Source of the DNA: an uncultured archaeon
GTDB taxonomy: Archaea; Altiarchaeota; Altiarchaeia; IMC4; SCGC-AAA252-I15
Length of the DNA stretch: 64,000 bases
NCBI GenBank assembly: GCA_902384455.1
Contig: CABMCB010000079.1
Location: 618 to 64,617 of the forward strand
Direction: 5' to 3'
The notes under the pieces are model-generated. The model was not told the origin of the DNA, did no database searches, and was given only the letters and a program-made list of their open reading frames with translations. Of this stretch, positions 41,092 through 62,402 are shown in pieces; positions within the stretch are counted from its first letter, which is position 1, and every line of letters starts with the position of its first letter. Both the position numbers and the translations under genes were made by a program.

Positions 41092-41093
41092 AC

Positions 41094-42011: not shown

Positions 42012-42093
42012 ACTACTGCTTGCTTTTAAGTCTAAATGAGGGAATAAGTACATAGGAGGAATAACAATTCCATCTAACAAAAAGGTCGAAAAA

Positions 42094-43077: not shown

Positions 43078-43082
43078 AGAAA

Positions 43083-43126: not shown

Positions 43127-43175
43127 AACCCCCTATTTTATACCTTTTTTTCAAACAAAACTTTTACGTACGTCT

Positions 43176-44099: not shown

Positions 44100-44201
44100 G
44101 GTACTTGAAGATTCGGAAAGGATTAAAGGATTTTTTTAGACGCCAGTCAATTTAATAATCAAGTTCGACAGAAAAACGTGTTCTGGACAATTAATCAAAA
44201 A

Positions 44202-46455: not shown

Positions 46456-47187
46456 TCAGCCGTACATCGGCGAATCGCACTCCATCTGCTTGTACCCGTC
46501 GCGGCCTCTTTTTACGTGTTCTGTGATGTCCTTCATCTTTTTTTCTATTTCCTCTCCCACTTCGGAAAGTTTGGCGGTATCGACTTTTATGCCGAGTATG
46601 TCGTTTAGTATGGTTAGTAAGCTGGCTGCTGCCGCTGGGTCTGGGGAGTAGACTGTTTCCACCATCAAGCTGACGTATGGAACCTCGTTTGTCCTGCACC
46701 AGAACAGTAGTTCGCTTGATACTCCGATCATCATTCCTTCCTTTAGGTGTGGAACTTTAAGCGCGTCAAGTTTGGTCTGGCAGGCGTTGTGGCTGCAGAG
46801 GGTGAATATGGCGTGGTCCGCGTTGCTTTGAGTTCCTGTGACGCCGGCAAGAAGTATCATCTCTTTAGGCTTAATCTGGTTGAGCCAGTCTTCAAGTGCC
46901 TTAGAGAACTCAGGTATCTTATCCAGGGGTATTACCGCCTCGGAGTAGATGACTACAAACTGGTTTTTCGCATAAATCTGAATCGGCTTTAATGGAGTGC
47001 CGTCGTGGACCACCGTTATGCCAGCGGTTATGTCCGAATCAATGAAGCCGATTAACTCCATATCAAGCGCCGCAATAATCTGCCCTGCTGCTATGGTGGA
47101 CACGTATCCTTTTCCTGGGAACGCTTCGATTACCGTCGGCTTGTCCGAAACTGTTTTTCCTTTAAACAAATGAATGGTTGCTGTCAT
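46456..47187 (-). CDS. PAC2-family proteasome assembly chaperone
   Basis: PTVIEAFPGKGYVSTIAAGQIIAAL N-terminal motif and a length of 243 aa. Confidence 0.6.
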   Translation of the reverse strand: MTATIHLFKGKTVSDKPTVIEAFPGKGYVSTIAAGQIIAALDMELIGFIDSDITAGITVVHDGTPLKPIQIYAKNQFVVIYSEAVIPLDKIPEFSKALEDWLNQIKPKEMILLAGVTGTQSNADHAIFTLCSHNACQTKLDALKVPHLKEGMMIGVSSELLFWCRTNEVPYVSLMVETVYSPDPAAAASLLTILNDILGIKVDTAKLSEVGEEIEKKMKDITEHVKRGRDGYKQMECDSPMYG

Positions 47188-48179
47188 TTTCTTCCTGCGA
47201 GAGTAATAACGTCCGAGAGTATGGCGCTGCTCGTCTCCCTTGGCCCTGCGCCCCGCCCTATCACCGTGACGTCCCTTGCGATATCAGTATTCAACTGGAT
47301 GGCGTTCAGCGTCCCTGAAACGTTAAGCGGATGATGCTTAGGCACCAAGCGAGGCGAAACTTCCCGTGCCCCCACGTCGCCAATAAGTTTGATTGCATAA
47401 CCGTGCTTGGAGGCCAGCGAAACAGTCTCATACGTTATGTCCGCGATTCCTGTCACCTTAACGTCACTGAACGTTATGTTTTGCCCCATAAGCGCGTTAG
47501 CAAGTATGACCACTTTAGCGGCAGTGTCAATCCCCTGGATGTAGTACGTCGGATCCGGCTCTGCTATTCCAAGTTCCTTGGCTTCGTTAAGGGCGGCGTC
47601 AAAAGGCACGCCGTCGTCAGTCATCTTGGTGAGAATAAAGTTTGTCGTGCCATTAAGTATTCCGTAAATGCTCTCTATGGAATCCGCCTTCAACGTCTCC
47701 CTATAGAGGTTAAGTAACGGCACAGCCCCCCCTACTGTCGCCTCAAACAGCACCGTCTTGCCTGTCTTCTCCTGCGCATCCATAATCCTCTTATAGTTGG
47801 TAGCGAAAGGCGCCTTGTTTGACGTGGCGACGTCCTTCCCGCTTTCAAGGGCGGCAAGAATATGGTTCAAACCCGGCTGACCCGTCTGAATATTCCCCGG
47901 CGTAAGCTCCACCACAGCGTCAGCAGTCGACTCCTTAATCGCGTCCAAAGTCTTCAAACCCTGACGCCACCCCTCCTGCTCAGCAAGAGGCTTAGACAAA
48001 ACTGTAGAAAGATCAACATCGCCTTTAGGAAGAAGACAGCCGTTTATCTCACAGACACCCGAAACCCTCAAATCAACCCCATGACGCTTCCTAATGTACG
48101 CCTGCTTCTGCTCAAGCGTCTTAAGCAGGCCCTTTCCAATGATTCCGAACCCTACTATTAGTATCCTGTACTGTTTCAT
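47184..48179 (-). CDS. hom: Homoserine dehydrogenase
   Basis: ILIVGFGIIGKG Rossmann motif, plus GILNGTTNFILT and AEPDPT..I.G.D motifs. Confidence 0.85.
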   Translation of the reverse strand: MKQYRILIVGFGIIGKGLLKTLEQKQAYIRKRHGVDLRVSGVCEINGCLLPKGDVDLSTVLSKPLAEQEGWRQGLKTLDAIKESTADAVVELTPGNIQTGQPGLNHILAALESGKDVATSNKAPFATNYKRIMDAQEKTGKTVLFEATVGGAVPLLNLYRETLKADSIESIYGILNGTTNFILTKMTDDGVPFDAALNEAKELGIAEPDPTYYIQGIDTAAKVVILANALMGQNITFSDVKVTGIADITYETVSLASKHGYAIKLIGDVGAREVSPRLVPKHHPLNVSGTLNAIQLNTDIARDVTVIGRGAGPRETSSAILSDVITLAGRK

Positions 48180-48721
48180 GTCTCAATAGAACTGATTAAC
48201 AAAAGCTTCTTTTCCACACATATAGACTGGACTTCCTCAAGAAGCACCTTCTTCCTCTTAGCGTCAAAATGCACCGAAAGAAGAACAGACGACTTCTTCT
48301 CAGGAGCCGGCATCTGAACATCCACATCAGACACCAAACCATGCCTGTTAATGCGGTCAATAGTATCCTTCATGTCCGTATCAATCACATGGCCGACAAA
48401 CAGAAGATGAAGAGTCTTCCTCTTGTAATAAGGGCTTCCTTCAACGCTGATAGTCGAAACAGGGACCTTAGCCTCGGAATAAGCCCTGCTGATATTAGCC
48501 AAAGACGTCTCGTCGGCGACAGACAAAACAACATCAAGGTCTACGTTGCTGCCTTCCTTGCGATGATGAGAAACGCTCAGGATATTGCCCCCAAAGTCAG
48601 AAATCGGCTTCAAGGCCTGAAGAAGAGCCCCCGGCCTATCCTGAACACCAACGCGCAGCTCGACCTTCATACGCAAGGATATAGGACGCAACACTTTAAA
48701 ACGCCCGCGCAGAACCCTCAT
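48176..48721 (-). CDS. ACT-domain regulatory protein
   Basis: VELRVGVQDRPGALLQALKPISDFGGNILSV is an ACT signature. The gene overlaps hom by 4 nt. An alternative start lies at 48670. Confidence 0.65.
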   Translation of the reverse strand: MRVLRGRFKVLRPISLRMKVELRVGVQDRPGALLQALKPISDFGGNILSVSHHRKEGSNVDLDVVLSVADETSLANISRAYSEAKVPVSTISVEGSPYYKRKTLHLLFVGHVIDTDMKDTIDRINRHGLVSDVDVQMPAPEKKSSVLLSVHFDAKRKKVLLEEVQSICVEKKLLLISSIET

Positions 48722-48776: not shown

Positions 48777-50876
48777 ATGACCACGCTAATAGTCACAGAA
48801 AAACCCAAAGTCGCGGAAAGAATAGCCACCACCATAGGCGCAAGCCCAGAAAGAAAACAAAAAGGCCAAGTAACATACTTCAAAGTAGGCGACGTATACG
48901 TAGCACCCGTTGTAGGACACGTTTACGGGCTGGCTGAAGCCAAAAAAGACGCCAAATGGACTTATCCCGTATTCGACATAGAGTGGGTGGGGTCGTGGGA
49001 AAACGGCAAGGACAGCGACTACACTAAAAAATACGTTGACGTCATAAAGGAACTGGCTAAAAAATGCGACCTCTTCGTCAACAGCTGCGACTACGACATA
49101 GAAGGGGAAGTAATAGGATACAACGTCATAAAGCACGCCTGCAAAACAGACCCGCTTGGCCCAAAAGCCAAAAGGATGCGCTACAGCTCACTAACCGAAG
49201 AAAGCATACTCAAAGCATACAAAAACCTAAGCCCAGCAGACAAAGGAATGGCCGCGGCAGGACTAACCCGCCACACACTCGACTGGTACTGGGGAATAAA
49301 CCTAAGCCGCGCCCTCACAATAGCATTACGCAAAGCACGCAGATACGCCACATTAAGCGTTGGCCGCGTTCAGGGGCCTTCGCTTAAGATGCTCGCCAAG
49401 AGGGAGTTGGAGATAATCGCTTTCAAGAGCGAAAAGTACTGGGAAGTCGTTCTAGTCTCTGAAAAGGACAAGATTGCTTTCGAAGCCCTCCACAAGATAG
49501 AGCGGTTCAAGAAGAAGGAAGAAGCCGACGCCGCAAAAGCGCGGTGCGGACCTAAGGCGACGGTAGTAAAAGTAACAAAAAGGGACATAGAGCAGCCGCC
49601 TCCAACGCCTTTTGACCTGACGACGCTGCAGACTGAAGCGTACCGCCACCACGGCATAGACCCCCGCCAAACGCTTGATGTGGCCCAAGACCTCTACATC
49701 TCAGCGCTCATAAGTTATCCCCGAACAAGCAGCCAACAGTACCCCCCGGACCTTGACGTAGAGGGCATACTCAAAAAAATAAGCCAACAACCAGAATACA
49801 AGCCCCTAACGGACATAGTGCTCAAGAAAAAGCCGTTAAAACCCCACAACGGACCCAAAAAAGACCCAGCCCACCCCGCAATCCACCCCACAGGCGAAAC
49901 ACCCAAAGGGCTCGACGGATACCACAAAAGAATATACGACCTCATAGTGCGCAGATTCATAGCGTGCTTCGGCGAACCCGCGCTACGCCAAACACTCACA
50001 GTCAACCTGGAAACAAACAAAGAACCATTCACAGCCAAAGGAATGGCAACAATAAAACCCGCCTGGCACACACTATACGGACCCTACGCCAAATTCAAGG
50101 AAATACAACTCCCGCCGCTCACCGAAGGCGACATCGTAAACGTAAAATCAGTGGACGTCAAAGGCAAAGAAACAACTCCGCCCAAAAGATACACCCCCGC
50201 AAGCATAATCCGGGAAATGGAAAAAAGAAACCTGGGCACCAAAGCCACACGCTCAACAATAGTAGACATACTATTCAAACGCGGATACATCAAAGGCAAA
50301 AGCCTCGAAGTAACCCCACTCGGCATAAACGTAGTAGCAACACTAGACAAACACTGCCCAGAAGTACTCTCCGAAGAACTAACAAGAAAATTCGAAAAAG
50401 AAATGGAGAAAATACAGGAAAACAAATACCCACCAGAAAAAGTCATAGAAGAAGGAAAAGAAGCAATACAAACAATCTCCAAAAACTTCACCCAACACGA
50501 AAACGAAATAGGCCAAGAACTAGCCAAAGCACTCGCAGAAAGCTCACGCGACGAAAACGACCTGGGACCATGCCCCAAATGCGAAAAAAACAGGCTCACA
50601 TTCAGATTCGGAGGACCCCGAAAAACAAGATTCATCGGCTGCACAGGCTACCCAACATGCACATTCACAGTAAACCTGCCCCCAGGAACAATAAAGAAAA
50701 TGGGGGAATGCAAATACTGCGGCAGACAAGTACTCGCAACCACAGGGAAAAACTCATTCGCATTCTGCGCCAACCCATACTGCGAAAGCAAAAAAAACGG
50801 CCTCTCCAAAAACCCCAAAGAACTACTGAAGAAGGAGGAGGCCAAATCTGAGCCTCAGGAAGAAGACCAAGAATGA
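48777..50876 (+). CDS. topA: Type IA DNA topoisomerase with C-terminal zinc ribbons
   Basis: Toprim start TLIVTEKPKVAE, an active-site region ISYPRTSSQQY with the catalytic Tyr, and C-terminal CPKC...C..YP.C and CKYCG...CANPYC fingers. Confidence 0.85.
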   Translation: MTTLIVTEKPKVAERIATTIGASPERKQKGQVTYFKVGDVYVAPVVGHVYGLAEAKKDAKWTYPVFDIEWVGSWENGKDSDYTKKYVDVIKELAKKCDLFVNSCDYDIEGEVIGYNVIKHACKTDPLGPKAKRMRYSSLTEESILKAYKNLSPADKGMAAAGLTRHTLDWYWGINLSRALTIALRKARRYATLSVGRVQGPSLKMLAKRELEIIAFKSEKYWEVVLVSEKDKIAFEALHKIERFKKKEEADAAKARCGPKATVVKVTKRDIEQPPPTPFDLTTLQTEAYRHHGIDPRQTLDVAQDLYISALISYPRTSSQQYPPDLDVEGILKKISQQPEYKPLTDIVLKKKPLKPHNGPKKDPAHPAIHPTGETPKGLDGYHKRIYDLIVRRFIACFGEPALRQTLTVNLETNKEPFTAKGMATIKPAWHTLYGPYAKFKEIQLPPLTEGDIVNVKSVDVKGKETTPPKRYTPASIIREMEKRNLGTKATRSTIVDILFKRGYIKGKSLEVTPLGINVVATLDKHCPEVLSEELTRKFEKEMEKIQENKYPPEKVIEEGKEAIQTISKNFTQHENEIGQELAKALAESSRDENDLGPCPKCEKNRLTFRFGGPRKTRFIGCTGYPTCTFTVNLPPGTIKKMGECKYCGRQVLATTGKNSFAFCANPYCESKKNGLSKNPKELLKKEEAKSEPQEEDQE

Positions 50877-51928
50877 GCCACTTCGAGCTTTGGCTTAAAG
50901 CATACGAGGAAAACAGGAAAGACATTCTGAAAGAACTGAGGACTTACCGTCAGACCATAAAAAACACCTCGGAAAAACTCCCAAAAAACCTCCTCCGCCA
51001 AGTAACCCCCGGCCACCACAACCTGCCGGGACCCCACGCGTTCGTCGACGGCGGAGAAGGAATCAGAGACCTGCTTGGGGCAGCCGCCTACGCAGTAAGA
51101 GGAAGCGCACTGATAATAGACGACGTAGATAAGCAAAAAGGCAGGTTTGCGAGAAACATAGACATAGGAGTGCTGCCGCACGACGACCACACAAAAGACC
51201 GCGTGGAACTTAGGCGAGAAATACTGGAAGTAGACGCCGCAACAACGGCAATAAACGACCACAACGCAAAAACGTTGTTTCTGGACGGAAGCCTATACGT
51301 CAAAGCCCGCAGACAACCCGCTCCAGTAGAAGAATACAAAGCATACAGGAAAAAATTCGCCGCACTACTCAGAACATGCAAAAACAAGAACATACGCCTC
51401 ATAGGAGTAAGCGAAGACACAAAAAGCAAACTACTAACACACCACCTAAAAACACAATACGACGTAGAATTCCCCATATTCCTAACCGACGCAAGCATAC
51501 TAAGAATGCTCGCAGGAAAACAAACAACATTCCAAACACCATTCTTCACGCCACAAAGCTTATTCGAAGCAGACGAAGACCTCGGCCGAGGATTCACAGT
51601 AGGATTCCACACAGCCTACCTGCAGCCGACACCCCTCTCGCTGCCCCTTAGAATCGACATCCCCGACTGGGACCCCAATCCGCAGCAACTGATGGACTTC
51701 ACGGCGTACTTAACACAAGGAAGCCGCAGCTACGGCTACCCCGTGCCCCTGTACCTTGTTCACATTGACGCCCACATAACCCCCCACCAAACAGACTGGA
51801 GCACAGAACAACTGCTGATGTACATAAGGAAAGAAGACCCCGACATCGCCGACTCGATACTGCACATAAACCGCAGAGAAAACAGGCCAAAAGGAAAAAA
51901 CCAAACGGAAGAGAAAAACAGTTCCTGA
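50873..51928 (+). CDS. nurA: NurA-domain 5'-3' nuclease
   Basis: The acidic motifs FVDGGEG, LFLDGSLY and LIGVSEDTKSKLL resemble the conserved NurA blocks. The start overlaps the topA stop (ATGA). Confidence 0.5.
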   Translation: MSHFELWLKAYEENRKDILKELRTYRQTIKNTSEKLPKNLLRQVTPGHHNLPGPHAFVDGGEGIRDLLGAAAYAVRGSALIIDDVDKQKGRFARNIDIGVLPHDDHTKDRVELRREILEVDAATTAINDHNAKTLFLDGSLYVKARRQPAPVEEYKAYRKKFAALLRTCKNKNIRLIGVSEDTKSKLLTHHLKTQYDVEFPIFLTDASILRMLAGKQTTFQTPFFTPQSLFEADEDLGRGFTVGFHTAYLQPTPLSLPLRIDIPDWDPNPQQLMDFTAYLTQGSRSYGYPVPLYLVHIDAHITPHQTDWSTEQLLMYIRKEDPDIADSILHINRRENRPKGKNQTEEKNSS

Positions 51929-51988
51929 TTCCTCTATTATATATACGGCGTTTATCCAAAGAATAACAGCATCAAAGCCGGTGAAAAA

Positions 51989-54900
51989 GTGAGGATGGAC
52001 GACAAAACTACATTTAATCCAACAAAAAACAGGCCGTCCATCAACCCCGAAATTCCTCTTTTCGTTCCCTACAAATCCAAGCCGGCAAAGCATACCAACA
52101 AATTGGTTGTCCTCTTAGCCGCAGTATTCATCCTTTCCGGCGTCTTTTTGGCCATCCGCGCCTCATTCCCGGCGACACCACAAGTACAAGGCGCATTCCT
52201 GGGGGTAGACTTAGACAAGATATTCGGGAAACAAACAGGCGGAGATTCAAAGATACAATACGACGTAGAAAATACCTGGCGAATGAGCGGGAAAAACCCG
52301 CAGCACACAAGATTCTTCAACGTGTCAATAAACGGCACCCTCATCCCCGAATACATATGGTACGGCTGGGCGAACTCATTATACACAACACCCATCGCAT
52401 TCAACGACAAAATATACGCTATATTAGACGGCTCTTACTACTCCGGATACGGAAGCATGTACAACTCATATGCCTACCAATACTGCTACTACACCGGACT
52501 ATACGAATTCGACGCCAGAGACCTTACAGTCCTCCAATACAACAACCCCTGGTATTATTACAACTACTGCCCCTACTCATATGGAAGCTTAGCCGGCGCA
52601 GGAGACAAAATATTCTACACCGACGAATACACGCGCGACCTAATAGCCGTAAATGCGTCAAACATAAGCCAAGTACTCGGAAACTTCAGCACCGCAGACA
52701 ACTGGTGGCAACGAGGATCACTGGTAGTAATAAACGGCACAAGCACAGACGACTCAGACCCCATAGTGTACACCTCAGAAAGCTACAACCGGACACTGTA
52801 CCGGATAAACGGCACAAACATGGCCAAGCTAGACCAGTTCATAGGCCTAGGATACGTCTACGACGGACCAACATACTTCAACGACAACCTATACTTCTCA
52901 GGAGGCGACGGATACATATACCGGACATACCCCAACCTAACACTAATCCAAAACTACAGTACAGGCGGAAGCGTAGGCCAAATGGCGGCAGGAGACAACG
53001 GCCTGATATACTTCTTCGGGACAATGAGCTACAACGACACCAACGGCACGCTATACTATTTTAATGGGCTATGGGCCCTAAACAGCAGCAACATAAGCCA
53101 AATCGTAACAAACCAATCCGGCATCGATAGATACTACGAATACTGGGGAACATGCAGCCCAGTAATAGCCAACGGCATAGTATACGGCCAAGTCTACAAT
53201 AGTAGCAGCGGCAGATTTATGATTGCCGCATACAACGAAAACGACCTGTCCCAGCAACTTGCAGCCCGTGAGTTAGTGCCCAGAGGATACCTCAATTACT
53301 GTCCGTATTACTACTACTGGTACTACGGGTACTATTGGCAATATGACCCATACTGCTACTACTACTATTACCCATCAAATTACATCTCCGGATGTCCCAT
53401 AGCGGGAGGAGGATACATATTTTTGGGCGACAACCACTGCCACTTCTACTCATTCAACGCAACAACCCTTGAATTGGTCGACTCATACGACCTGCTGAAC
53501 GACGGATACTACTACTGGGGCAACTACGCAGACACATGCACATGGTACCCATTCATAAGTGGCGAATCAGTTTACGCTGGAGTAACAGACTCAAAATACT
53601 ACGCAGCCAGCTGGTGCAGCCAAGTAAACACAACAGACAACAGCGTCTGCGATTCATGGGCATATAGCAGTTCATCCGAAGCCCAAGCATACCTAATCAA
53701 GTTCTCAGCATTGGTAGCCGAGGCAAACTTAACCCAAACCGCAACACCAGCCAGCCCGCAAAAATGGAACACATCAATCACATTCAGCTGCAACTACACA
53801 AACTCATCAGGAAGCCCCATAACAGGCTCAAAAGTCACCCTATCAATAGATTCCGACAACTACACAGCAACATACTCCGGCGGAGTATACTCCGTGACAA
53901 TAACCAACCTCACCCGAGGAGCCCACTCATGGTTCTGCAACGCAAAAGGCACAGGATACGAAGCCAAAATGGGAACACCCCAGACATACAGGATCAACCA
54001 AGAACCCATATTCGGATACAGGATATTCCAGCCAAACGGAAACGAATCAAGAGACACATACATAATGCAAAACTACGAAACATCATACTGGTGGAACTGG
54101 GCATGGCTCGCCGGATTAAACCACTACGAACATGACCCATACCTCAGAGTAGGAGCCGGATGGTACACGTGGTGCTACGACTGCGGCTCACCATACGGCT
54201 GGTGGGGATACACATCATGGGACTACAGAACACTAATATACTTCGACCTATCAAAACTACCACAAAACTCCACCAACATCACATCCGCAAGCGTAGGCCT
54301 GCACACCGACAACCTATACTGGGACTGGACGTGGTTCACAATCTACAACATGACCAACGGCTGGGCAGATAACGCAAGCTGGTTCATGAACGTAACAGAA
54401 ATAGACGCATGGTGGAACGACACCGAAGGCAACCTGTGGTACAACGGAACATTCTGGAACCAATCAGGAGGAGACTACGACTCTAACGCAATCAACCAAA
54501 CAACAATGGGCTGGCAATACTACTGGACATACTCTAACTGGCTATACTTCGACATAGCATCAACGCTAAGAAACTGGATAGGACACCCAGAAATACAAAA
54601 CCTAGGATTCCTACTAGACAGCTTCGGAAGCGGAGGAAGCTACACCAACTACAACTACTACGACCAAACAAACTTCGACTCATCAGAAACAGAAAACCCC
54701 GCAAACAGACCAAAACTACAAGTAAACTTCACAATAACAGACCAAACATGGCCCAGAAACACAAACAACAGCAACATAATAGCAAGCAGATTCTTCTGGG
54801 ACCCAGACAACGAAAACCTCACATACAACGTACTAGGACTAGATAACGACCTAGAAAACATGACCGCAATCATAGACACAAACTCAACCATCATAACATT

Positions 54901-55819
54901 CGTCCCCACCGAATGCTGGTACGGCGTCATAAGAAACATACGAATAATAGCAAACGACAGCTTCGGAACAACAGGAATAAGCAACAACTTCACACTAAAC
55001 GTCACATACACAGAAGGAGCCTGCAGCCACAACTACCCACCCCGAATAGGCAACGTAAACTGCACAAACCCAATAGACCTAACCGCCGCAGATTACGTAG
55101 CCATAACATGCAACGCAACATTCACAGACTCAAACGGATGCTCAGACGTAACAGGCGCAAACGGCACATTCTGGGACTCAACAAGCACAACATTCACAGC
55201 CGCAGACAACACATACAACCACTACACAAACGCAACATGCAGCAGACTATGCGCAGCAAGCCTAGTAACATGCGCATTCAACCTCGCATGGGTAGCCAAC
55301 GCAACAAACGACTGGTACGGAAACATCACAATCTGGGACAGCGACAACCAAAGATACAACTACACAAGCGGAATACAAGTAAACACAATAACAGGAACAC
55401 GCGGCAACACATCATCAATACCCGCAGGAGACTTCATAATAAACTTCAGCATAACATACACCGGAGGCCAAGTAATACCCGGCAGAACAAGCGACACCGA
55501 CGCAGTATCCACATTCCACAACACCGGAAACACCAAAATGAACCTGGAAGTCAACGGCTCAGACATGAGCTGCGCGCTAGGAACATCAATACCAGTGGCC
55601 AACATAAAATACGACAACAAAACCCTAAGCCACTCAAGCAAATGCGGCACACTAGCAACCAGCCTAGACAACACATGCACATCACTATCCTCCTACTTCC
55701 TGCTCGCCCCAGGCAACCCCTACCCAAAGAAAGACGTCTACTGGAGCGTCCAAGCGCCAATACCCCTCAAAGGACCCTGCAACGGAAGAATAGGCGTACT
55801 CGCAATAGCAGCAACCTAA
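51989..55819 (+). CDS. Giant (1276 aa) membrane-anchored or secreted adhesin-like glycoprotein: beta-propeller + Ig-like + DNRLRE-like + C-terminal family-S module
   Basis: N-terminal TM or signal anchor (LVVLLAAVFILSGVFLAI). A PQQ-like propeller region is rich in Y/W/N. RTLIYFDLSKLPQNSTNITSASVGLH resembles the DNRLRE domain core. From about 55031 the motifs YPPRIGNVNC, FTDSNGCSDV and HNTGNTKMNLEVNG are colinear with family S. Confidence 0.7.
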   Translation: MRMDDKTTFNPTKNRPSINPEIPLFVPYKSKPAKHTNKLVVLLAAVFILSGVFLAIRASFPATPQVQGAFLGVDLDKIFGKQTGGDSKIQYDVENTWRMSGKNPQHTRFFNVSINGTLIPEYIWYGWANSLYTTPIAFNDKIYAILDGSYYSGYGSMYNSYAYQYCYYTGLYEFDARDLTVLQYNNPWYYYNYCPYSYGSLAGAGDKIFYTDEYTRDLIAVNASNISQVLGNFSTADNWWQRGSLVVINGTSTDDSDPIVYTSESYNRTLYRINGTNMAKLDQFIGLGYVYDGPTYFNDNLYFSGGDGYIYRTYPNLTLIQNYSTGGSVGQMAAGDNGLIYFFGTMSYNDTNGTLYYFNGLWALNSSNISQIVTNQSGIDRYYEYWGTCSPVIANGIVYGQVYNSSSGRFMIAAYNENDLSQQLAARELVPRGYLNYCPYYYYWYYGYYWQYDPYCYYYYYPSNYISGCPIAGGGYIFLGDNHCHFYSFNATTLELVDSYDLLNDGYYYWGNYADTCTWYPFISGESVYAGVTDSKYYAASWCSQVNTTDNSVCDSWAYSSSSEAQAYLIKFSALVAEANLTQTATPASPQKWNTSITFSCNYTNSSGSPITGSKVTLSIDSDNYTATYSGGVYSVTITNLTRGAHSWFCNAKGTGYEAKMGTPQTYRINQEPIFGYRIFQPNGNESRDTYIMQNYETSYWWNWAWLAGLNHYEHDPYLRVGAGWYTWCYDCGSPYGWWGYTSWDYRTLIYFDLSKLPQNSTNITSASVGLHTDNLYWDWTWFTIYNMTNGWADNASWFMNVTEIDAWWNDTEGNLWYNGTFWNQSGGDYDSNAINQTTMGWQYYWTYSNWLYFDIASTLRNWIGHPEIQNLGFLLDSFGSGGSYTNYNYYDQTNFDSSETENPANRPKLQVNFTITDQTWPRNTNNSNIIASRFFWDPDNENLTYNVLGLDNDLENMTAIIDTNSTIITFVPTECWYGVIRNIRIIANDSFGTTGISNNFTLNVTYTEGACSHNYPPRIGNVNCTNPIDLTAADYVAITCNATFTDSNGCSDVTGANGTFWDSTSTTFTAADNTYNHYTNATCSRLCAASLVTCAFNLAWVANATNDWYGNITIWDSDNQRYNYTSGIQVNTITGTRGNTSSIPAGDFIINFSITYTGGQVIPGRTSDTDAVSTFHNTGNTKMNLEVNGSDMSCALGTSIPVANIKYDNKTLSHSSKCGTLATSLDNTCTSLSSYFLLAPGNPYPKKDVYWSVQAPIPLKGPCNGRIGVLAIAAT

Positions 55820-55820
55820 A

Positions 55821-56783
55821 ATGAACAAAAACCTGATAACAACAGCACTAATACTCATAGCCCTGACAGGCACAGCAACATCCCTAAGCATAGCAATCTC
55901 CCCCAGCATCACCAGAACGTCCATAGCCCGCGGACAAGAAATAGTCCAAAACATAAGAGTAACAACCCAAGACGAAGGCACATTCATAACCGTAGTAAGC
56001 GTAACAGGCTCCGCAAAAGGATGGACAACAATCCTAAACCCCTCAGTCAACGTAACCAAAAACCAACCCGGAAACATAAAAGTCAACATACAGATACCGC
56101 CAGAAGCAACAAACGGAGACTATGAATCCAAAATCTACATAACCCTACAACCCTACGTAGAAGCAACATCACAAGACATGGGAATGTCAGCCGAAATGAC
56201 CGGAGTAGCACTCATAGAAATAACCGTCACAGGCACAGGACTACTAGAACAAAAAATACTCCACATAGACATAGAAAGCGCAAAAGAAAACGACCCCATA
56301 AGACTAAACACCATAATAGCCAACTCAGGAAACATCCTCCTAAGAACAGCCCTCAACGTAAACATCCTAGACCAAGACAAAAACACCCTAAACAAAGAAT
56401 TCAACGAATACATAACCCTACCCGAAGGAACCCAACAACCATTCAACTTCAACATAACCTCCGGACTACCCGCAGGAAGATACTGGGCAAACGTCACATT
56501 CCTCTTCAACAACATAAAAAAACAAAACATAATGCTACCCTTCACAGTCCAAAAAAACCAGATAAAAAGACCCGAAACCACAACAACAACCACACAAACA
56601 CCCACAACAACCACAACACCCACACAAGAAACACCCCAAAACACCACAAAAACACCACAACCCGAAACAGAACAACCCACAACAATACCCTGGTCAACAA
56701 TAACCCTAATAATCCTAGTAGCCGCCATAGCCTACGTGCTATACTGGAGCAAGAAACGCGAAACAGCACGAAGATTTATATGA
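55821..56783 (+). CDS. Membrane-anchored surface beta-sandwich protein with Thr/Pro stalk (family M-like)
   Basis: Signal peptide, two beta-sandwich-like segments, a TTTTTQTPTTTTTPTQETPQNTTKTPQPETEQPTT stalk, then a C-terminal TM helix and basic tail. It starts 1 nt after the adhesin stop. Confidence 0.75.
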   Translation: MNKNLITTALILIALTGTATSLSIAISPSITRTSIARGQEIVQNIRVTTQDEGTFITVVSVTGSAKGWTTILNPSVNVTKNQPGNIKVNIQIPPEATNGDYESKIYITLQPYVEATSQDMGMSAEMTGVALIEITVTGTGLLEQKILHIDIESAKENDPIRLNTIIANSGNILLRTALNVNILDQDKNTLNKEFNEYITLPEGTQQPFNFNITSGLPAGRYWANVTFLFNNIKKQNIMLPFTVQKNQIKRPETTTTTTQTPTTTTTPTQETPQNTTKTPQPETEQPTTIPWSTITLIILVAAIAYVLYWSKKRETARRFI

Positions 56784-56811
56784 CCTCGCCAAATACAATA
56801 GGGATACATAA

Positions 56812-58011
56812 ATGACAAAAAAGGCGCATAATACGACCAAACAAATTCTCAAAAAAGCCCTAATAGCAACAATAATCCTCACATTCTACACCCTACAAAC
56901 AAACGCCGTAAGCATAGGCGCAGGCCCAGCAGTACTCAACTTCAACAACATGGTACGCGGCGGATACGCAGAAGACTCAGTCACAGTATCAACAAGCGGA
57001 ACAGAAAACCTAACCGTAGTAATCGAATCCACAGGCCAAATAAAAGACTGGGTCACAGTATCAACCCCCATGCCAATGCCCCTAATGGCAGGCGAAAGAA
57101 AAAACATCAAAATCGTAGTCAGACCCCCAGTAACAGCCTCACCCGGAGAATACTCAGCAATACTATACATAAGAGCAGCACCCACCGCAGGCATAGGAAA
57201 CTCAACCGGCCTAGCACTAGGCGCAGGAGTAGGAATACAAATCAACGTAAACATCACAGGCCGAGAAATCAAAGGATACAGCCTAAAAGCAGTCAACGTC
57301 AAAGACACCGAAGTCACATTCCCCATAGACATCACAACCCTAATTGAAAACACCGGAAACATCCCACTACAACCCACATTCAAAGTCAAAATACTAACAC
57401 CCACCGGAGAAGAAACAACCGCCCAAAAAGAATTCACAGTAGGCACATTCAACCCCGGCATACAAGAAAACTACACATTCACCCTACCCTCCACAGGACT
57501 AGCCGAAGGAAAATACGCGGCCAGCATCGCAATAAAAATAGAAAACAACGAAACCGACCTAGCCAACCTAGGTTTCACCCTACTCCCACCCGGCAGCCTG
57601 CGCCTAAAGGGAGAATTCAAGAGCATAACACTATCCGAAAACACCATAGCACCCCAAAAACCCGTAAAAATCACCGGCATATTCCAAAACACCGGCGAAG
57701 TACCGACAAACGCTCAACTAACAGTTGAAGTATACAAAGGCACAGAACTCATAAAGACAATAGACTCAACAGAAACACGAGTAGACGCAGGAGAAACCCA
57801 ACTACTCGACGTAACATACACCTCAGAACAACCAGGAGACCTAACCATACGAGGCACAATAACATACAGCAAAAAGAAGACGCCAGAAAAAGAAATAACA
57901 CTCATAGTATCCGGAGGCGGATTACCCACCACATACATCGCAATCGGAGCAGCAGTAATAATACTGATAATCGGAGGGGTAGTCTACTACAAACGGAACT
58001 ATGCACTATAA
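56812..58011 (+). CDS. Membrane-anchored surface beta-sandwich protein, family M
   Basis: VSIGAGPAVLNFNNMVRGGYAEDSVTVSTSG N-terminal block, ENTGNIPL, GKYAASI, and a C-terminal TM helix. Confidence 0.8.
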   Translation: MTKKAHNTTKQILKKALIATIILTFYTLQTNAVSIGAGPAVLNFNNMVRGGYAEDSVTVSTSGTENLTVVIESTGQIKDWVTVSTPMPMPLMAGERKNIKIVVRPPVTASPGEYSAILYIRAAPTAGIGNSTGLALGAGVGIQINVNITGREIKGYSLKAVNVKDTEVTFPIDITTLIENTGNIPLQPTFKVKILTPTGEETTAQKEFTVGTFNPGIQENYTFTLPSTGLAEGKYAASIAIKIENNETDLANLGFTLLPPGSLRLKGEFKSITLSENTIAPQKPVKITGIFQNTGEVPTNAQLTVEVYKGTELIKTIDSTETRVDAGETQLLDVTYTSEQPGDLTIRGTITYSKKKTPEKEITLIVSGGGLPTTYIAIGAAVIILIIGGVVYYKRNYAL

Positions 58012-58040
58012 ACAATAATAACAAAAAAAGGGAGAAAACC

Positions 58041-59267
58041 ATGACAAAAAAGAACCTATGCGTTGTAGTCGCCGTGCTAACGGCATTAATGGGATACGCT
58101 TCTGCCGTAAGTCTGGGCGCAGGCCCGGCAGTCGTAGAATTCCCCGAAATGATAAAAGGCGGATACGCCGAACAAGTCATAACGGTATCAACAGCCGGTG
58201 ACGAACCCCTAATCGTCAAATCAGAAGTCACAGGCGAAATCAAAAGCTGGGCGTCAGTAGAAGAAGGAGGCACATTCAAACTCGACCCAGCCGCCCGAAG
58301 AGACGTCAAAATAATGGTAAACCTCCCCATCGACGTCCCCAACGGCAGATACGAAGGAATAATCTACTTCCGCGCAGCACCAGCATCAAGTGCATCAGGC
58401 GAAGGAACAGGACTATCACTCGGCGCAGGAGTAGGAATACGCGTAGGCATAACAGTAAGCGACAAACAAGTAGAAAAATACGAACTACGACAAGTCGGAG
58501 TCAAAGACACAGAAATAGGATTCCCCGCAGAATTCACAGCAACACTAGCAAACACAGGAAACGTCCGCTTAGTCCCAAAAATAACAATCACAATAATGGA
58601 CGAACTAAAAAAGAGAACAATAAAAACATTCGACTACGCTGAAACAGAAATAAAACCAACATCCTCCGAAACAATAACAATAAAAGTCCCAACAAACGGA
58701 ATAGACGTAGGCAAATACACCGCAAAAGTAACAGCAGACAACGGACAAGAACAAGAAGTATTCTTCAACGTACTAGAAAAAGGCACACTAGCACTCAAAG
58801 GAATCCTACGCGAAGTCAAAGCCGAAAAAGTCTGGGTAGAAGAAGGAGAAATGGTCAAAATAGTCGCCACACTCGAAAACACCGGCGAACTACCCATCGA
58901 AGGAGCAATATTCAAAGGAGAAGCATACCTAGTAGACGACGCATACGGAACCAGAAAACTAGTCGGAACATTCGAAAGCGACCAAATGGACGTACCCAAA
59001 GAAAAAACAGTCGAACTATCCAGCTACTACACACCCGCAATAGGCGGCCGCTACGTCATCCGCGGTGAAGTAGCATACGGCGGCAAAAGAACCCAAAGCA
59101 AAGACACCATACTAAACGTAGTGGCAAAGCCGACAAACTTCCTACCCTACGCAGTAATCGTAGGCGTAATAGTAATAGCCATAGTCTACTACCTAACACG
59201 AAAAACCGAAGACGGAAGAACACGCCGCTTCAAAAAGATTTGGGCAGACTACTTAGGGCTAAAATAA
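58041..59267 (+). CDS. Membrane-anchored surface beta-sandwich protein, family M
   Basis: VSLGAGPAVVEFPEMIKGGYAEQVITVSTAG. It is colinear with 32919-34238 throughout (VGKYTAKVTADNGQEQEVFFNVL, LPIEGAIFKGEAYL, GRYVIRGEVAYGG). It has a C-terminal TM helix and basic tail. Confidence 0.8.
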   Translation: MTKKNLCVVVAVLTALMGYASAVSLGAGPAVVEFPEMIKGGYAEQVITVSTAGDEPLIVKSEVTGEIKSWASVEEGGTFKLDPAARRDVKIMVNLPIDVPNGRYEGIIYFRAAPASSASGEGTGLSLGAGVGIRVGITVSDKQVEKYELRQVGVKDTEIGFPAEFTATLANTGNVRLVPKITITIMDELKKRTIKTFDYAETEIKPTSSETITIKVPTNGIDVGKYTAKVTADNGQEQEVFFNVLEKGTLALKGILREVKAEKVWVEEGEMVKIVATLENTGELPIEGAIFKGEAYLVDDAYGTRKLVGTFESDQMDVPKEKTVELSSYYTPAIGGRYVIRGEVAYGGKRTQSKDTILNVVAKPTNFLPYAVIVGVIVIAIVYYLTRKTEDGRTRRFKKIWADYLGLK

Positions 59268-59280
59268 GGAGGACAAAAAA

Positions 59281-60000
59281 ATGATCAAAAAAACCAAAAC
59301 AGGAATCCCCGGAGTGGACGAACTCATAGGCGGAGGCATACCAGACAAAGCAGTCATAATAGTATCAGGATCCCCCGGTATCGGGAAAAGCAACTTCGCA
59401 ATGCAATACATATACAACGGAGCAACAATGTTCAATGAACCCGGCGTATACATAACCGTAGAAGACACACCCGAAAACGTCAAAGCATACGCACAAGAAT
59501 TCGGCTGGGACCTAGACAAACTCGAAAAAGAAAACAAAATAGCAATAGTCGCCCAACCAATATACGGCGACGACAAAGAAATGAAAAGAGGAGGCAAAGA
59601 CCGCAAAGACACCCTATCCGAAACAATAAAAAGAATAGGCGCAAAAAGAGTAGTACTAGACAGCGTAACACTATTCAAATACCTATTCAACGACGACATA
59701 GCACGAAGAATAAACCTCCTAAACTTCATCAAACAAGTAAAAGACTCCGGCTGCACAACAGTAATGGTAGCAGAACAACACGAAAGCTCCCCAAACATAA
59801 CATACCTAGACGAACACTTCCTAGCAGACGGCCTACTACTCCTATTCTGGAGCAGACACCGCGAAAAAGCAGAAAGATGCTTCGTAGCAGTAAAAATGAG
59901 AGGCTGCGAAATCAACTCAGACATGAGGCCCATGAAAATAACCAACAAAGGCGTCATAGTCTACCCAACACAAGTACCATTGACGTTGGCCTCCGACTAA
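59281..60000 (+). CDS. Single-domain KaiC/RecA-superfamily ATPase (COG0467-like)
   Basis: GIPGVDELIGGGIP, Walker A GSPGIGKS and Walker B RVVLDS; 239 aa. Confidence 0.8.
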   Translation: MIKKTKTGIPGVDELIGGGIPDKAVIIVSGSPGIGKSNFAMQYIYNGATMFNEPGVYITVEDTPENVKAYAQEFGWDLDKLEKENKIAIVAQPIYGDDKEMKRGGKDRKDTLSETIKRIGAKRVVLDSVTLFKYLFNDDIARRINLLNFIKQVKDSGCTTVMVAEQHESSPNITYLDEHFLADGLLLLFWSRHREKAERCFVAVKMRGCEINSDMRPMKITNKGVIVYPTQVPLTLASD

Positions 60001-60052
60001 AAGCCAGTAATCCCGTCAACACGGCCGATTCACCGTTACTTTAATCTGAGCG

Positions 60053-60634
60053 ATGCCAGTTACCCCAGTTGGACGGAGTTCAGGGATAGACATAAACTCG
60101 GACCTGCAAGGGGCTCAGATTCTGGTTCTTGTCATACCCGAAGACCAGTATAACGACAAGGTTATGGCAATCCTAAAGAACCTTGCAGAGAGCAACACAA
60201 ACAAAGTCTGCTATGTCTCATTGAATCGGCCGTATTCCTCTCTTAGGAATAATCTTGCGTCTGCGGGGGTGTCAATTAACAGCATATATGTTATTGATGC
60301 TATCACTAAGACTGCGGAGATGGCTGAGAACACGGAGAATGTTGAGTTCATTTCTTCTCCTGATGCGTTGACTGAGTTGTCTCTTGCGGTAAGCAATTCT
60401 TTTGACGTGAAGAAGTTCAATTACTTGTTCTTTGATTCATTGTCGACTCTTCTTGTTTATGAATCGGATAGGGTAGTCACTAAGTTTGTTCATTTTTTGA
60501 TGGCTAAGATTAGGGTTGTAGAAGCTAGGGCTATATTTACTGTCTTGAAAAGGGACGTTGATTCTGTGCTTTTGAAGGACATCAACATGTTCGCGGATAA
60601 GATAGTTGACTTGGAGTACTGGAATCCCAAATGA
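60053..60634 (+). CDS. KaiC-like-fold paralogue lacking Walker A (probable pseudo-ATPase)
   Basis: The length and hydrophobic beta-strand pattern parallel KaiC-like domains (ILVLVIP, VCYVSLNRPY, YLFFDSLSTLL as a Walker-B-like strand), but no GxxxxGK[ST] is present. It is a paralogue of the next gene. Confidence 0.5.
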   Translation: MPVTPVGRSSGIDINSDLQGAQILVLVIPEDQYNDKVMAILKNLAESNTNKVCYVSLNRPYSSLRNNLASAGVSINSIYVIDAITKTAEMAENTENVEFISSPDALTELSLAVSNSFDVKKFNYLFFDSLSTLLVYESDRVVTKFVHFLMAKIRVVEARAIFTVLKRDVDSVLLKDINMFADKIVDLEYWNPK

Positions 60635-61245
60635 AAGCATTAGCTGACGTTAAAAACGAAGTCTCACAGTTGATAGGGAAAGCTGACACTTCGGACTCCT
60701 TCCTTATTGTGGTAAACTCAGGGTATCTGCAGGAGGTTACTGCAGACGTAGTCCGCGAATTCCAGGAAAGAACAACTTATGGGATATATGTCTCTCTTAA
60801 TAGGCCTTATTTCAGCGTGAAGAAGTATTTGGTGGAGCGGGGGGTTGACGTGGAGAGGGTCTTTTTTGTTGATTGTATCACTTCTGCGGCGACAAATGCT
60901 CAGTTTATTAATGACGCTAATGTTTTTTTTGCAAAGCACCCGGAGGATATCCGGCCGGAGGGTAGTATTCTTACGTCGATTAATAGGTTCATTAAGGCTA
61001 CGAGTGGTGAAAAGTTCATTGTGGTGGATGCTTTGAGGACTCTTTTGTTGCATAATGACGTTGAGGAGGTCTCTCAGTTTGTACATCATATTCTATCTCT
61101 CACGCATGGTCATCGCGTTAAGATTGTTTTTCTGACTTTGTGGGAGGAGGATATGGAGGTGATTCAGCGTCTTGGTATGGCGTTTGATGAGATTGCGCTT
61201 GTTGGCAGTGAAGATGGGTATATAGTTCCGCTGGATATCGATTAG
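60631..61245 (+). CDS. KaiC-like-fold paralogue lacking Walker A (probable pseudo-ATPase)
   Basis: It shares FLIVVNS, IYVSLNRPYFS and FIVVDALRTLL with the preceding gene. The ATGA start overlaps the preceding stop. Confidence 0.5.
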   Translation: MKALADVKNEVSQLIGKADTSDSFLIVVNSGYLQEVTADVVREFQERTTYGIYVSLNRPYFSVKKYLVERGVDVERVFFVDCITSAATNAQFINDANVFFAKHPEDIRPEGSILTSINRFIKATSGEKFIVVDALRTLLLHNDVEEVSQFVHHILSLTHGHRVKIVFLTLWEEDMEVIQRLGMAFDEIALVGSEDGYIVPLDID

Positions 61246-61340
61246 CCTTTTTTTATCCCCTTTTTCGTGATTCCTCTCACATAGGGGTTTCGTATTTTCC
61301 TTTTTTTTCTCACTTTTGTGTGAGTGAACATCACAATAAA

Positions 61341-61515
61341 ACACACATCTTATATTTATTATATAGTATATAATTACTATATTTATTAAATTATTTTATA
61401 TTCTACAAATAAAAATTACTTATTTATAACACATATATTATATATAACCAAATAAGAAATTTTTAATTTCGCAAATATTTTCAGATAAACCGTAAAATAT
61501 TCTTTCTTTTTATCG
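61341..61515. other. Near-pure A+T tract 1
   Basis: For example, 61381-61440 contains only 5 G/C in 60 nt, against about 50% GC in the flanking genes. Confidence 0.9.
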
Positions 61516-61852
61516 CTTTAAGGCACTAAATAAACGTTTTTTTAAGCATTGTTAATATATGAACTTCACACCCTGTTTTTCTATACTCGAGGACAGCAAT
61601 ACCCTGCGTTTAGGTTCGTAGGAGATAAATCGCTATATAGTGTCAGATTTTATAACCCGATTATGGGATAAAATCTATTAGAATCTAGTTTAACGCTCTT
61701 TTGCCCATGGGTTTGCTATCTGTATTTACTACTCCATATCATTATGATATACAGAACATATTTTGGTTAATTTTTATTAGATCATGTAAATTTTCTGCCT
61801 TTTTAATCTCTTAAGTTAATAGATTGATAACTATCCTTTTGGGGGATAAACA

Positions 61853-62080
61853 ATGGAAATAACGTCAAAAGATATAGAAAAACTTAAGTTTGTCAAAGAT
61901 TCGATAGACAAAGGAAATGCTACGACTATCGAAAAAAACGAGTGCTTGCAGGCCCTTGACGCAGTTATTTCCCCAAAGTGTGCCATGTGTAGGATGCCTT
62001 TGGGTGAAGGTTATGCCGTAGTAAATGAGCGAAAGTTCCACGAATCCTGCGTAAAGAAGTATTCTGCTGCCCCTAAGTAA
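61853..62080 (+). CDS. Small (75 aa) protein with a C-x2-C...H-x2-C zinc-binding-like motif
   Basis: CAMCRMPLGEGYAVVNERKFHESC. GGGGGAT lies 7 nt upstream of the ATG as a possible RBS. The gene is embedded between the two A+T tracts. Confidence 0.5.
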   Translation: MEITSKDIEKLKFVKDSIDKGNATTIEKNECLQALDAVISPKCAMCRMPLGEGYAVVNERKFHESCVKKYSAAPK

Positions 62081-62232
62081 TAATATATTTCGTTTTTATG
62101 TTTAAATTTTATGTAATAAAATATTTCATATGAATACATACTATATAATACATATAAAAAATATACTAATTTACAAAAATATAAATTTATAATAATTATT
62201 ATATTATATAAATTAAATTTATCTTATGTGGA
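62081..62232. other. Near-pure A+T tract 2
   Basis: For example, 62161-62220 contains only 2 G/C in 60 nt. Confidence 0.9.
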
Positions 62233-62402
62233 TTTTAGGGTGGGAAATGCGCATTAAAAATGTGAGAGATAGACAAAAAGAAAATGTGAGAAGTATATGC
62301 TCGAAAAACAGTCACTATACAACGAAAAATAAATGCGCAAAGAATCTGACAACTGACCACAAAAAGCAATGGTGTTATTAATTCCCTCTCACATATGTTA
62401 CC

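Follow-up and report, generated by a model that had tools for sequence, protein, structure and literature searches.

A 64-kb stretch of DNA from an uncultured archaeon of the phylum Altiarchaeota (contig CABMCB010000079.1; hereafter, the window) carries at positions 51989-61245, on the plus strand, a cassette of seven genes that encode a giant glycoprotein ending in a module designated S, three membrane-anchored proteins of a family designated M (M2, M3, and M4), an ATPase of the KaiC family, and two inactivated KaiC-like proteins (D1 and D2). An initial annotation of this DNA had proposed the locus as a candidate surface-structure system. Its coordinates for the seven same-strand open reading frames (ORFs) and their spacing (gaps of 1, 28, 29, 13, and 52 nt and one 4-nt overlap) proved exact. 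The features of the cassette are as follows.

51989-55819, plus strand: giant glycoprotein, secreted or anchored (1276 aa; ORF), with a propeller-like region, an immunoglobulin (Ig)-like region, and a C-terminal S module
55031-55816, plus strand: S module of the giant protein (aa ~1015-1275), matching free S proteins by BLAST (E = 1e-10 to 5e-6)
55821-56783, plus strand: M2 (320 aa), with two beta-sandwich domains, a Thr-rich stalk, a transmembrane (TM) helix, and a short basic tail
56812-58011, plus strand: M3 (399 aa), with a signal peptide, three beta-sandwich domains, a TM helix, and an 8-aa tail; BLAST match to M4, E = 1e-63
58041-59267, plus strand: M4 (408 aa), always the gene directly before KaiC
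59199-59264, plus strand: cytoplasmic tail of M4, TRKTEDGRTRRFKKIWADYLGLK, proposed from its conservation as a docking site for the KaiC-like module
59281-60000, plus strand: KaiC-like single-domain ATPase (239 aa); PF06745, E = 6e-59, 199.7 bits against a cutoff of 26.6
60053-60634, plus strand: D1, inactivated KaiC-like protein (DUF7504); PF24336, E = 1e-10, 42.8 bits; KaiC, E = 4.5e-5
60631-61245, plus strand: D2, inactivated KaiC-like protein (DUF7504/DUF7090); PF24336, E = 8.9e-7, 30.0 bits

We located S, M, KaiC, D1, and D2 on every locus retrieved, by BLAST and then with profile hidden Markov models (HMMs), and we scanned an alignment of M4 orthologs against one genome per species. The latter scan retrieved five loci, all from metagenome-assembled genomes (MAGs) of Altiarchaeota or Altiarchaeales. 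The nearest named homolog of M4 belongs to a Candidatus Altiarchaeales MAG, and every M4 ortholog that could be examined comes from Altiarchaeota MAGs or metagenome contigs only. The co-occurrence of S, M, and KaiC genes in related genomes, a comparison that the initial annotation had called for, takes the form of one same-strand cassette per M4-bearing Altiarchaeota locus, with the consensus order [large S-ended protein]-M-M-S-(S)-M4-KaiC-DUF7504-DUF7504 in each such locus examined. The gene orders (XS, large S-ended protein) are as follows.

L001 (= L006): XS(638)-M-M-S-S-M4-KaiC-D1-D2
L004: XS(812)-M-M-S-M4-KaiC-D1
L005: XS(635)-M-M-S-S-M4-KaiC(split)-D1-D2
L007: ...M...S-M4-KaiC-D1-D2
L008: M-S-M4-KaiC, then the contig end
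JGI contig (gene sizes, no DNA): 635-407-408(M4)-KaiC-DUF7504-193

The identity of these genes to the window copies is 64-73% for KaiC, 52-58% for D1, 42-48% for M4, and 28-39% for D2; the M4 orthologs found in the searches with M4 are 42-49% identical. In L001 and L004-L008, no gene of the window other than those of the cassette was found within 10 kb of the cassette; the flanks are thus unshared while the cassette is retained, which indicates that the cassette is kept as a unit. Because identity has fallen to 28-48% for M4 and D2, selection rather than recent descent appears to maintain the order. A reverse scan of metagenomes, seeded with D1 and two short peptide patterns and reaching close D1 orthologs only, yielded 11 loci. 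All three of the 11 that include enough upstream DNA carry S-M4(tail)-KaiC-D1-D2, and the short contigs comprise five with KaiC-D1-D2, two with D1-D2, and one (L018) in which S directly precedes D1. The three longer loci are as follows.

L012: M-S-M-S-M4-KaiC-D1-D2
L014: S-M4-KaiC-D1-D2
L017: XS-M-M-S-M4-KaiC-D1-D2

The arrangement recurs in many independent genomes and is beyond chance. Functional coupling of these genes, as inferred in the initial annotation, is supported by the conservation of the cassette, by the reverse D1 search, and by the unshared flanks.

The cassette ATPase has intact Walker A (GSPGIGKS at aa 30) and Walker B (VVLDS at aa 124) motifs, and it matches KaiC (8zn5; E = 1.4e-57) and PH0284 (E = 6e-37) in the PDB. 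With its single domain, it falls below the cutoffs for circadian double-domain KaiC (118-153 against 408-546 bits for TIGR02655 and NF006799), and it also falls below those for ArlH (36.3 against 215 bits for NF052589 and 39.3 against 194 bits for NF004723). By these NCBIfam cutoffs, it is a true KaiC-family member that is neither circadian KaiC nor ArlH. D1 and D2 both exceed the PF24336 cutoff of 27 bits and have no Walker A motif. D2, which overlaps D1 by 4 nt, is a paralog of D1 (BLAST, E = 1.8e-13), and orthologs of D1 contain long invariant stretches. The Pfam families and the motif check agree with the previous description of one intact KaiC followed by two Walker A-less paralogs.

BLAST comparisons place four proteins of the window in the M family, i.e., M2, M3, M4, and the following protein encoded outside the cassette.

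32919-34238, minus strand: M-family anchor (439 aa) with a short tail and no KaiC neighbor; BLAST match to M4, E = 5e-96

Each of the four carries a signal peptide and, near its C terminus, a TM helix. BLAST (E of ~1e-16 between M2 and both M3 and M4) and TM prediction bear out the earlier view of the three cassette members as paralogous anchored proteins, and the predicted beta-sandwiches appear in the AlphaFold2 model of M4 (predicted local distance difference test [pLDDT], 85.9), with domains at aa 26-139, 147-245, and 254-361, a TM helix at aa 368-386, and a tail modeled as a short cytoplasmic helix at aa 395-404. Fold matches of M4 in the PDB are to generic tandem Ig, ASH, and MG domains. 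M3, of which an ortholog is present in all cassettes, has subthreshold Pfam matches to CARDB, ASH, and HYDIN-type Ig domains, and the Thr-rich stalk and TM helix of M2 weakly match the C terminus of a haloarchaeal S-layer glycoprotein. An exhaustive HMMER search with the M profile returned 13,697 proteins at E ≤ 1e-3, of which 1,082 passed E ≤ 1e-30, and almost all of the best 150 align across nearly the whole profile. The few named relatives are hypothetical proteins of Altiarchaeota and Aenigmarchaeota MAGs; M matched neither ABC-transporter accessories nor any characterized family. M is a large unannotated family that is very widespread in uncultured archaea.

What sets M4 apart is its cytoplasmic tail. 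After the TM helix, M4 orthologs share the consensus TRK(G)EDGRTRRFKKIWGDYLxIK, with the near-invariant core RTRRFKKIWGDYLxIK. Mean pairwise identity reaches 73% in the tail, whereas the three ectodomains stand at 43-55% and the TM helix at 43%. Across the window and all loci, the motif is confined to M4 C termini. Among the other best-scoring M representatives examined (n = 148), the strict motif occurs in P0035 only, and clearly related tails occur in P0036 and P0048; the rest have short basic tails or, in a few cases, long coiled-coil-like ones. The charged coiled-coil-like tails of P0060, P0064, P0092, and P0093 measure ~45 aa, and the P0060 cluster includes an Aenigmarchaeota MAG protein; different M subfamilies may couple to different cytoplasmic partners. 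That the tail exceeds the ectodomain in conservation and invariably lies beside the KaiC trio constitutes the strongest argument for a physical link, and this pattern suggests that the M4 tail docks the KaiC-like module.

All-against-all BLAST assigned to the S family of the window the C terminus of the giant protein and five free genes, which are as follows.

34257-35180, minus strand: free S protein with a signal peptide and no C-terminal anchor; BLAST matches to other S proteins, E = 4e-68 to 6e-44
40992-45179, plus strand: tandem array of four free S genes (40992-42011, 42094-43077, ~43150-44099, and 44178-45179)

The tandem genes are 45-84% identical in the same comparison. The highest value belongs to the pair at 42094-43077 and 44178-45179 and points to a recent duplication. 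The ORF called at 42819-44099 overlaps the preceding S gene; translation probably begins instead at a non-ATG codon around 43150-43180. Each S protein carries a signal segment at its N terminus and lacks a C-terminal anchor, and it contains 10-12 Cys residues and ~8 sequons. The AlphaFold2 model of the protein encoded at 44178-45179 (pLDDT, 83.2) has two beta-sandwich domains, both complete, with no missing strand evident in the secondary-structure summary. S proteins matched no Pfam or NCBIfam family, the S profile had no significant sequence match to any PDB structure, and a fold search with the model gave weak generic Ig matches (E of ~1e-4). The family is rare, with 6 matches in a first word-indexed search and 14, among 5.8 billion clusters, in a second; such searches are less sensitive than the exhaustive HMMER search used for M. 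Derivation of S and M from each other was rejected (hhalign probability, 0.6%); the two have only a short NTGN motif in common.

The C terminus of the giant protein aligns with the S family, including its conserved C-terminal YW..P..G.C motif, and its BLAST matches to free S proteins (aa ~1015-1264; E down to 1e-10) confirm that the S module had been correctly recognized there. The giant protein has a hydrophobic segment near its N terminus (aa 38-56) and 53 N-glycosylation sequons, and it is rich in Y, W, and N (9.6% Tyr; ~10% each of Tyr, Asn, and Thr). Its description as a "beta-propeller" finds support at aa 267-345 only, a blade-sized region that matches propeller-blade proteins (8pra; E = 8e-6), and the term "DNRLRE-like" is unconfirmed, since neither Pfam nor NCBIfam detected DNRLRE in this protein. 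The sole link to DNRLRE is indirect: aa 670-830 resemble, by BLAST, a protein of L001 that bears CBM96. Pfam also gave a weak Big_3_5 match. Orthologs of the giant protein are shorter (626-812 aa), end in an S module, and open the cassettes of L001, L004, L005, and L017. Elsewhere in the window, a glycosylation gene cluster (18773-29906) includes glycosyltransferase family 4 (GT4) genes at 18773-19954 and 25124-26326, GT2 genes at 21563-22711 and 29028-29906, and a PMT_2-like membrane transferase gene at 27152-28723; such a cluster accords with the extensive glycosylation predicted for the S, M, and giant proteins.

The pairing of S with M extends beyond the cassette. In the window itself, the S gene at 34257-35180 lies directly upstream of the M gene at 32919-34238, and both BLAST and adjacency uphold this second pair, which the initial annotation had noted. 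A third co-occurrence that it had counted, between the S array and an anchored protein encoded at 45181-46449, does not stand: this gene adjoins the array, but it is convergent and does not belong to the M family. We also rejected it as a divergent M protein (no BLAST or M-HMM match; hhalign probability, 1%; Pfam, TRAP_beta/DUF11), and the S-M co-occurrences in the window therefore number two rather than three. Among the other loci, an S module lies directly upstream of M in Altiarchaeota (L001, L004, L005, L007, L008, L012, L014, and L017) and in distant uncultured archaea (L002, L009, L011, L023, L024, and L025). The arrangements in the distant archaea are as follows.

L002/L003: S-M-giant (>3794 aa)
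L009: S-M-S-S'-M'
L011: Kelch giants with S modules, then S-M
L023: S-M-S
L024 and L025: XS-S-M

The S proteins of these distant lineages are only 25-30% identical, and the S-M adjacency is retained. S modules also terminate large proteins with differing N termini (i.e., the propeller-like giant protein, the 626-812-aa proteins, and the Kelch giants of L011). Cassette-type KaiC was found in none of the distant S-M loci, which indicates that the core module consists of S and M; the KaiC trio and the special tail are an Altiarchaeota-type addition to this core. The coupling to KaiC that the initial annotation had suggested thus applies to the M4 subfamily with the special tail and not to S-M pairs generally, most of which are KaiC-less. 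Beside the S-M cluster of L009, a signaling island on the minus strand (1-7700) encodes a KaiC-like ATPase, a KaiC-small-GTPase fusion, a Roadblock/LC7 protein, two TrmB regulators, a dCache-HAMP protein, an iKaiC, and a rhomboid protease. The KaiC of this island is a generic paralog, only 31% identical to that of the cassette, and the island was rejected as independent support for a link between S/M and KaiC, being weak at best.

These comparisons bear on two other interpretations of the S and M proteins. The first holds that they are ordinary envelope proteins (S-layer-like or periplasmic proteins with a structural or binding role, or transporter accessories) whose proximity to KaiC is a lineage accident preserved by descent. 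The size of the M family at E ≤ 1e-3, its generic anchored Ig-domain architecture, and its structural matches to Ig, ASH, and MG domains agree with this interpretation, and the Altiarchaeota loci could share their gene order by common descent. It is difficult to reconcile with a cassette that is retained between differing flanks and at the low identities of M4 and D2, with an S-M adjacency that spans such divergent lineages, and with the lack of adjacent transporter genes, and we regard it as very improbable.

The second interpretation is that S polymerizes into a filament or pilus (e.g., by strand donation, the mode of archaeal threads, bundling pili, and chaperone-usher pili), with the giant protein as the tip adhesin, M as the platform, chaperone, or base, and KaiC regulating or energizing the assembly. 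Several S paralogs per genome (five free ones here) would correspond to major and minor pilins, the adhesin-S fusion resembles a two-domain tip adhesin (such as FimH with its pilin domain), and the tandem Ig-like domains of M recall PapD-type chaperones. Moreover, Sec-dependent archaeal fibers built by strand donation with unknown assembly machinery have been described (PMC9715654), and elaborate surface appendages are known in Altiarchaeota (PMC4460559). However, the modeled S monomer comprises two complete beta-sandwiches with no strand evidently missing, its matches to solved structures are limited to weak generic Ig folds, and the cassette contains no usher, pore, or dedicated signal peptidase. 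The near one-to-one order of S before M also suits cognate pairs better than a polymer and its platform. We therefore consider a filament, the main rival to our preferred reading, possible but on the whole unlikely.

The transcription signals around the cassette, together with the gene that precedes it, are as follows.

50873-51928, plus strand: NurA gene, between a topoisomerase gene and the cassette
51933-51945, plus strand: TATA-like box, TCTATTATATATAC (ATTATATATA at 51936), read from the sequence; candidate archaeal promoter
61248-61308, plus strand: oligo-T runs (T7, T5, and T8), read from the sequence; candidate archaeal terminator

The TATA-like box lies ~45-55 nt before the GTG codon at 51989, inside the 60-nt gap between NurA and the giant gene. 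Shine-Dalgarno (SD)-like motifs were read ahead of M3, M4, and KaiC, and the 13-nt spacing between M4 and KaiC contains such a motif and neither a TATA box nor an oligo-T run. The first oligo-T run begins 3 nt past the D2 stop codon, and a hairpin-plus-T candidate at 61273 is the sole plus-strand terminator-like site of the region. To judge from these motifs, the signals fit one transcription unit spanning 51989-61245. The initial annotation had named an unconserved neighborhood, separate transcripts, and M proteins that match a well-characterized unrelated system as findings that would speak against it; the neighborhood is conserved, the signals fit a single transcript, and M has no characterized match. 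The NurA gene lies ~19 kb from a Rad50-like gene (29900-32149, minus strand), as compared with the usual archaeal Mre11-Rad50-HerA-NurA cluster. On the plus strand from ~24000 to 60000, A exceeds T very strongly (skew up to 0.52), and the GC skew of the coding strand is negative. This composition yields long spurious alternative-frame ORFs (e.g., 52357-53064 and 54913-55824), the translations of which abound in R, K, H, N, and T.

Downstream of the cassette lies a conserved neighbor that was outside the coordinates of the initial annotation. This gene and its homologs with mapped positions are as follows.

61853-62080, plus strand: Z, a 75-aa CxxC...HxxC Zn-ribbon-like protein
L001, 13516-13731, minus strand: Z homolog
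L004, 9247-9465, minus strand: Z homolog
L005, 13358-13573, minus strand: Z homolog

Homologs of Z (72-75 aa; 39-54% identity) are encoded just downstream of D2 in L001, L004, L005, L013, L017, and L019. They usually lie on the opposite strand, convergent to the cassette, whereas Z is on the same strand in the window. The only family match is a weak LIM-type one, and Z might serve the KaiC module as an adaptor or output. The region around the Z gene (61245-62400) is AT-rich (~38-41% G+C, in comparison with 45-52% elsewhere), with many TATA-like words; it contains no long ORFs and no match to an Rfam family or tRNA, and Rfam and tRNA scans of the whole window likewise returned nothing.

The KaiC trio and Z could also act as an independent regulator that controls the expression or modification of the surface genes without touching M4, in which case the tail would have some other role (e.g., membrane sorting or lipid binding). 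Separate regulation is permitted by the 52-nt gap ahead of D1 and by the position of Z as a gene of its own, most S-M pairs are KaiC-less, and the KaiC island beside the S-M cluster of L009 is unrelated. KaiC-like ATPases and inactivated paralogs are, furthermore, abundant in archaea in many contexts, as far as described in PMC5847659. This reading is unlikely in our judgment, given that only 13 nt, containing an SD-like motif and neither a TATA box nor an oligo-T run, separate M4 from KaiC, that the tail and the KaiC trio occur together in every locus examined (an anomalous short contig, L018, excepted), and that a tail more conserved than its ectodomain points to a specific protein partner.

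Our preferred reading, to which we give an even chance, is that S and M form a surface display complex that is coupled in Altiarchaeota, via the M4 tail, to the KaiC/iKaiC module. The model starts from what the sequences and structure models show: S proteins are exported, unanchored two-domain beta-sandwich glycoproteins with many Cys residues, the same module ending the adhesin-like giants, and M proteins are exported chains of two or three beta-sandwich domains whose C-terminal helix lies in the membrane. As the strict gene pairing suggests, the S module would dock non-covalently on M, so that both free S proteins and adhesin-S fusions would be held at the surface; the S module would be a common attachment handle, as WxL is with WxLIP in Firmicutes. 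M4 would have gained its near-invariant cytoplasmic tail of ~23 aa, with which it would bind KaiC and the two dead paralogs, perhaps as a mixed ring. The state of the surface (attachment or load) might then be reported to a KaiC-type switch, or, conversely, ATP-dependent changes in KaiC might change the conformation of the surface complex or how it clusters; Z would be a candidate output or adaptor.

Several observations weigh against this display model. In the window, no M gene adjoins the tandem S array at 40992-45179, and in L010, the anchored protein encoded after S does not belong to the M family. In L018 (2-1767, a short contig), S runs into D1-D2 without M4 or KaiC, which could be a natural deletion variant or an assembly artifact. 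D2 is missing in L004 (9039-9250), where Z follows D1, and the trio is thus not strictly obligatory; in L005, KaiC (11232-11947) is split into ORFs of 89 and 153 aa. These defects of the trio may reflect lineage decay or assembly or sequencing errors. The reverse scan, with its two short peptide patterns, could find only close D1 orthologs, and all of the sequences compared come from uncultured organisms. Finally, the similarity of M to WxLIP is marginal and S has no WxL domain, which makes the bacterial system a working analogy and not a sign of family membership.

A stronger form of the display model likens the complex to an integrin: M4 would be a single-pass receptor with its tail gripped by a mixed KaiC/D1/D2 ring, whose ATP- or phosphorylation-dependent switching would set how strongly S-docked adhesins hold or how they cluster and to which mechanical load is reported inward. 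In Altiarchaeota, such a machine might be the membrane base and controller of hamus-like appendages, and the DPANN-type S-M pairs might be a general apparatus for cell-cell attachment. We regard this extension as a long shot.

Altiarchaeota and DPANN-type archaea depend on attachment, in biofilms, through hami, and in contact with hosts. S and M represent two families without a Pfam or NCBIfam model, and the cassette ties such surface proteins to a KaiC-type ATPase module. The short near-invariant cytoplasmic peptide provides a concrete experimental handle; if its contact with KaiC is true, it would supply an explicit example of an extracellular input feeding the KaiC hubs proposed for archaea. 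The small size of the components permits their expression and testing in vitro, which would make transmembrane signaling in unculturable organisms tractable for study.

Comparison with known systems led us to set several candidates aside. An ABC-transporter accessory role was rejected, there being no adjacent transporter (the genes at 46456-48721 encode PAC2-family, homoserine dehydrogenase, and ACT-domain proteins), and a defense system was rejected, as PADLOC gave no match for eight proteins. The archaeal thread cluster (Saci_0404-0409) has no KaiC and no comparable anchors (PMC9715654). A Peptidase_S26-like gene at 36475-37233 on the minus strand, two genes from the S-M pair at 32919-35180, scores 18.2 bits against a cutoff of 22.9. 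A fiber of the TasA/SipW type was rejected on this subthreshold score, the Na+/H+ exchanger gene in between, the lack of a signal peptidase in any cassette, and the lack of a camelysin or TasA match in S.

Two archaeal envelope systems share features with the cassette. The arCOG01314 complex is likewise a predicted archaeal envelope complex with anchored and secreted Ig-domain proteins and a cytoplasmic ATPase, and it comprises a DUF4350 anchor, a MoxR AAA+ ATPase, vWA proteins, and PF07760 membrane proteins (Makarova 2015, PMC5898192). This secretion system was rejected because Pfam found DUF4350, MoxR, vWA, and PF07760 in none of the seven genes or their neighbors. The hamus subunit of Ca. 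Altiarchaeum hamiconexum, from the same phylum, is also a large, glycosylated, beta-rich, Sec-exported surface protein (PMC4460559); its domains are S_Layer_N, NosD, and FKBP_C (PMC4975002), and its gene is found on a small contig in an unrelated context. The giant protein has none of these domains and its context differs, and the cassette was therefore rejected as a hamus locus. A 1789-aa ORF at 8164-13533 on the plus strand falls in the size class of the 1808-aa hamus protein of that species; it has no Pfam match at E ≤ 0.01, and the hamus domains were not detected in it. The G+C content of the window is ~50%, in comparison with the 32% reported for Ca. Altiarchaeum hamiconexum.

ArlH (FlaH) is likewise a single-domain KaiC/RecA-fold ATPase encoded in a surface-structure cluster. 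The analogy with the archaellum motor drawn in the initial annotation is a loose one, since the cassette ATPase is much nearer to true KaiC CI domains. Clusters with ArlH have ArlI, ArlJ, and archaellins, none of which occurs among the window ORFs of at least 150 aa. The reported absence of ArlI/ArlJ, pilin, and secretin genes held within this set, in which neither ABC-transporter genes nor other type IV filament families (ArlI/PilB ATPase, ArlJ/TadC, and pilins) were found. With their apparently Sec-type N termini and all-beta bodies, the S proteins also appear unlike pilins with class III signal peptides.

KaiC-like ATPases with inactivated paralogs have been proposed as archaeal signaling hubs (Makarova, Galperin, and Koonin 2017, as cited in PMC5847659 and PMC6393860). 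As far as these citing papers describe them, the hubs share with the cassette a single-domain KaiC, dead paralogs (DUF7504, related to DUF835 and DUF7090), and putative inputs. They differ in the nature of the input, which in the cassette is proposed to be an anchor with an Ig ectodomain and a short tail rather than a fused sensor domain. An association with a secreted protein family was not among the contexts described in the sources that we found.

The closest resemblance is to the WxL/WxLIP (Csc) clusters of Enterococcus and Lactobacillus, which combine a small WxL protein, a large WxL-ended protein whose binding domains are N-terminal, and an Ig-Ig-TM anchor that binds them (PMC10599100), i.e., the same cluster logic as that of S, XS, and M. 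M matches WxLIP in architecture only: a signal peptide, tandem Ig-like domains, a C-terminal TM helix, and neighbors with a shared module. The match of the M profile to EfmWxLIP1 is marginal (E = 0.008; 17 bits), the Pfam WxLIP_HBD match, seen in M4 only, is subthreshold (21.8 against 28.9 bits), and no WxL domain was found in S proteins by Pfam, NCBIfam, or PDB profile searches. M has three domains, in contrast to the two of WxLIP, and there is no LPXTG partner here. To our knowledge, archaea have no peptidoglycan to which a WxL-type module could bind. The WxL clusters, unlike the cassette, have neither KaiC-like ATPases nor a conserved cytoplasmic tail. The literature on DUF7504 and on Altiarchaeota with KaiC yielded no published description of the cassette, and the cassette and the S and M families appear to be undescribed, whereas the principles that they combine (i.e., an anchor with docked surface proteins and KaiC hubs) are already known.

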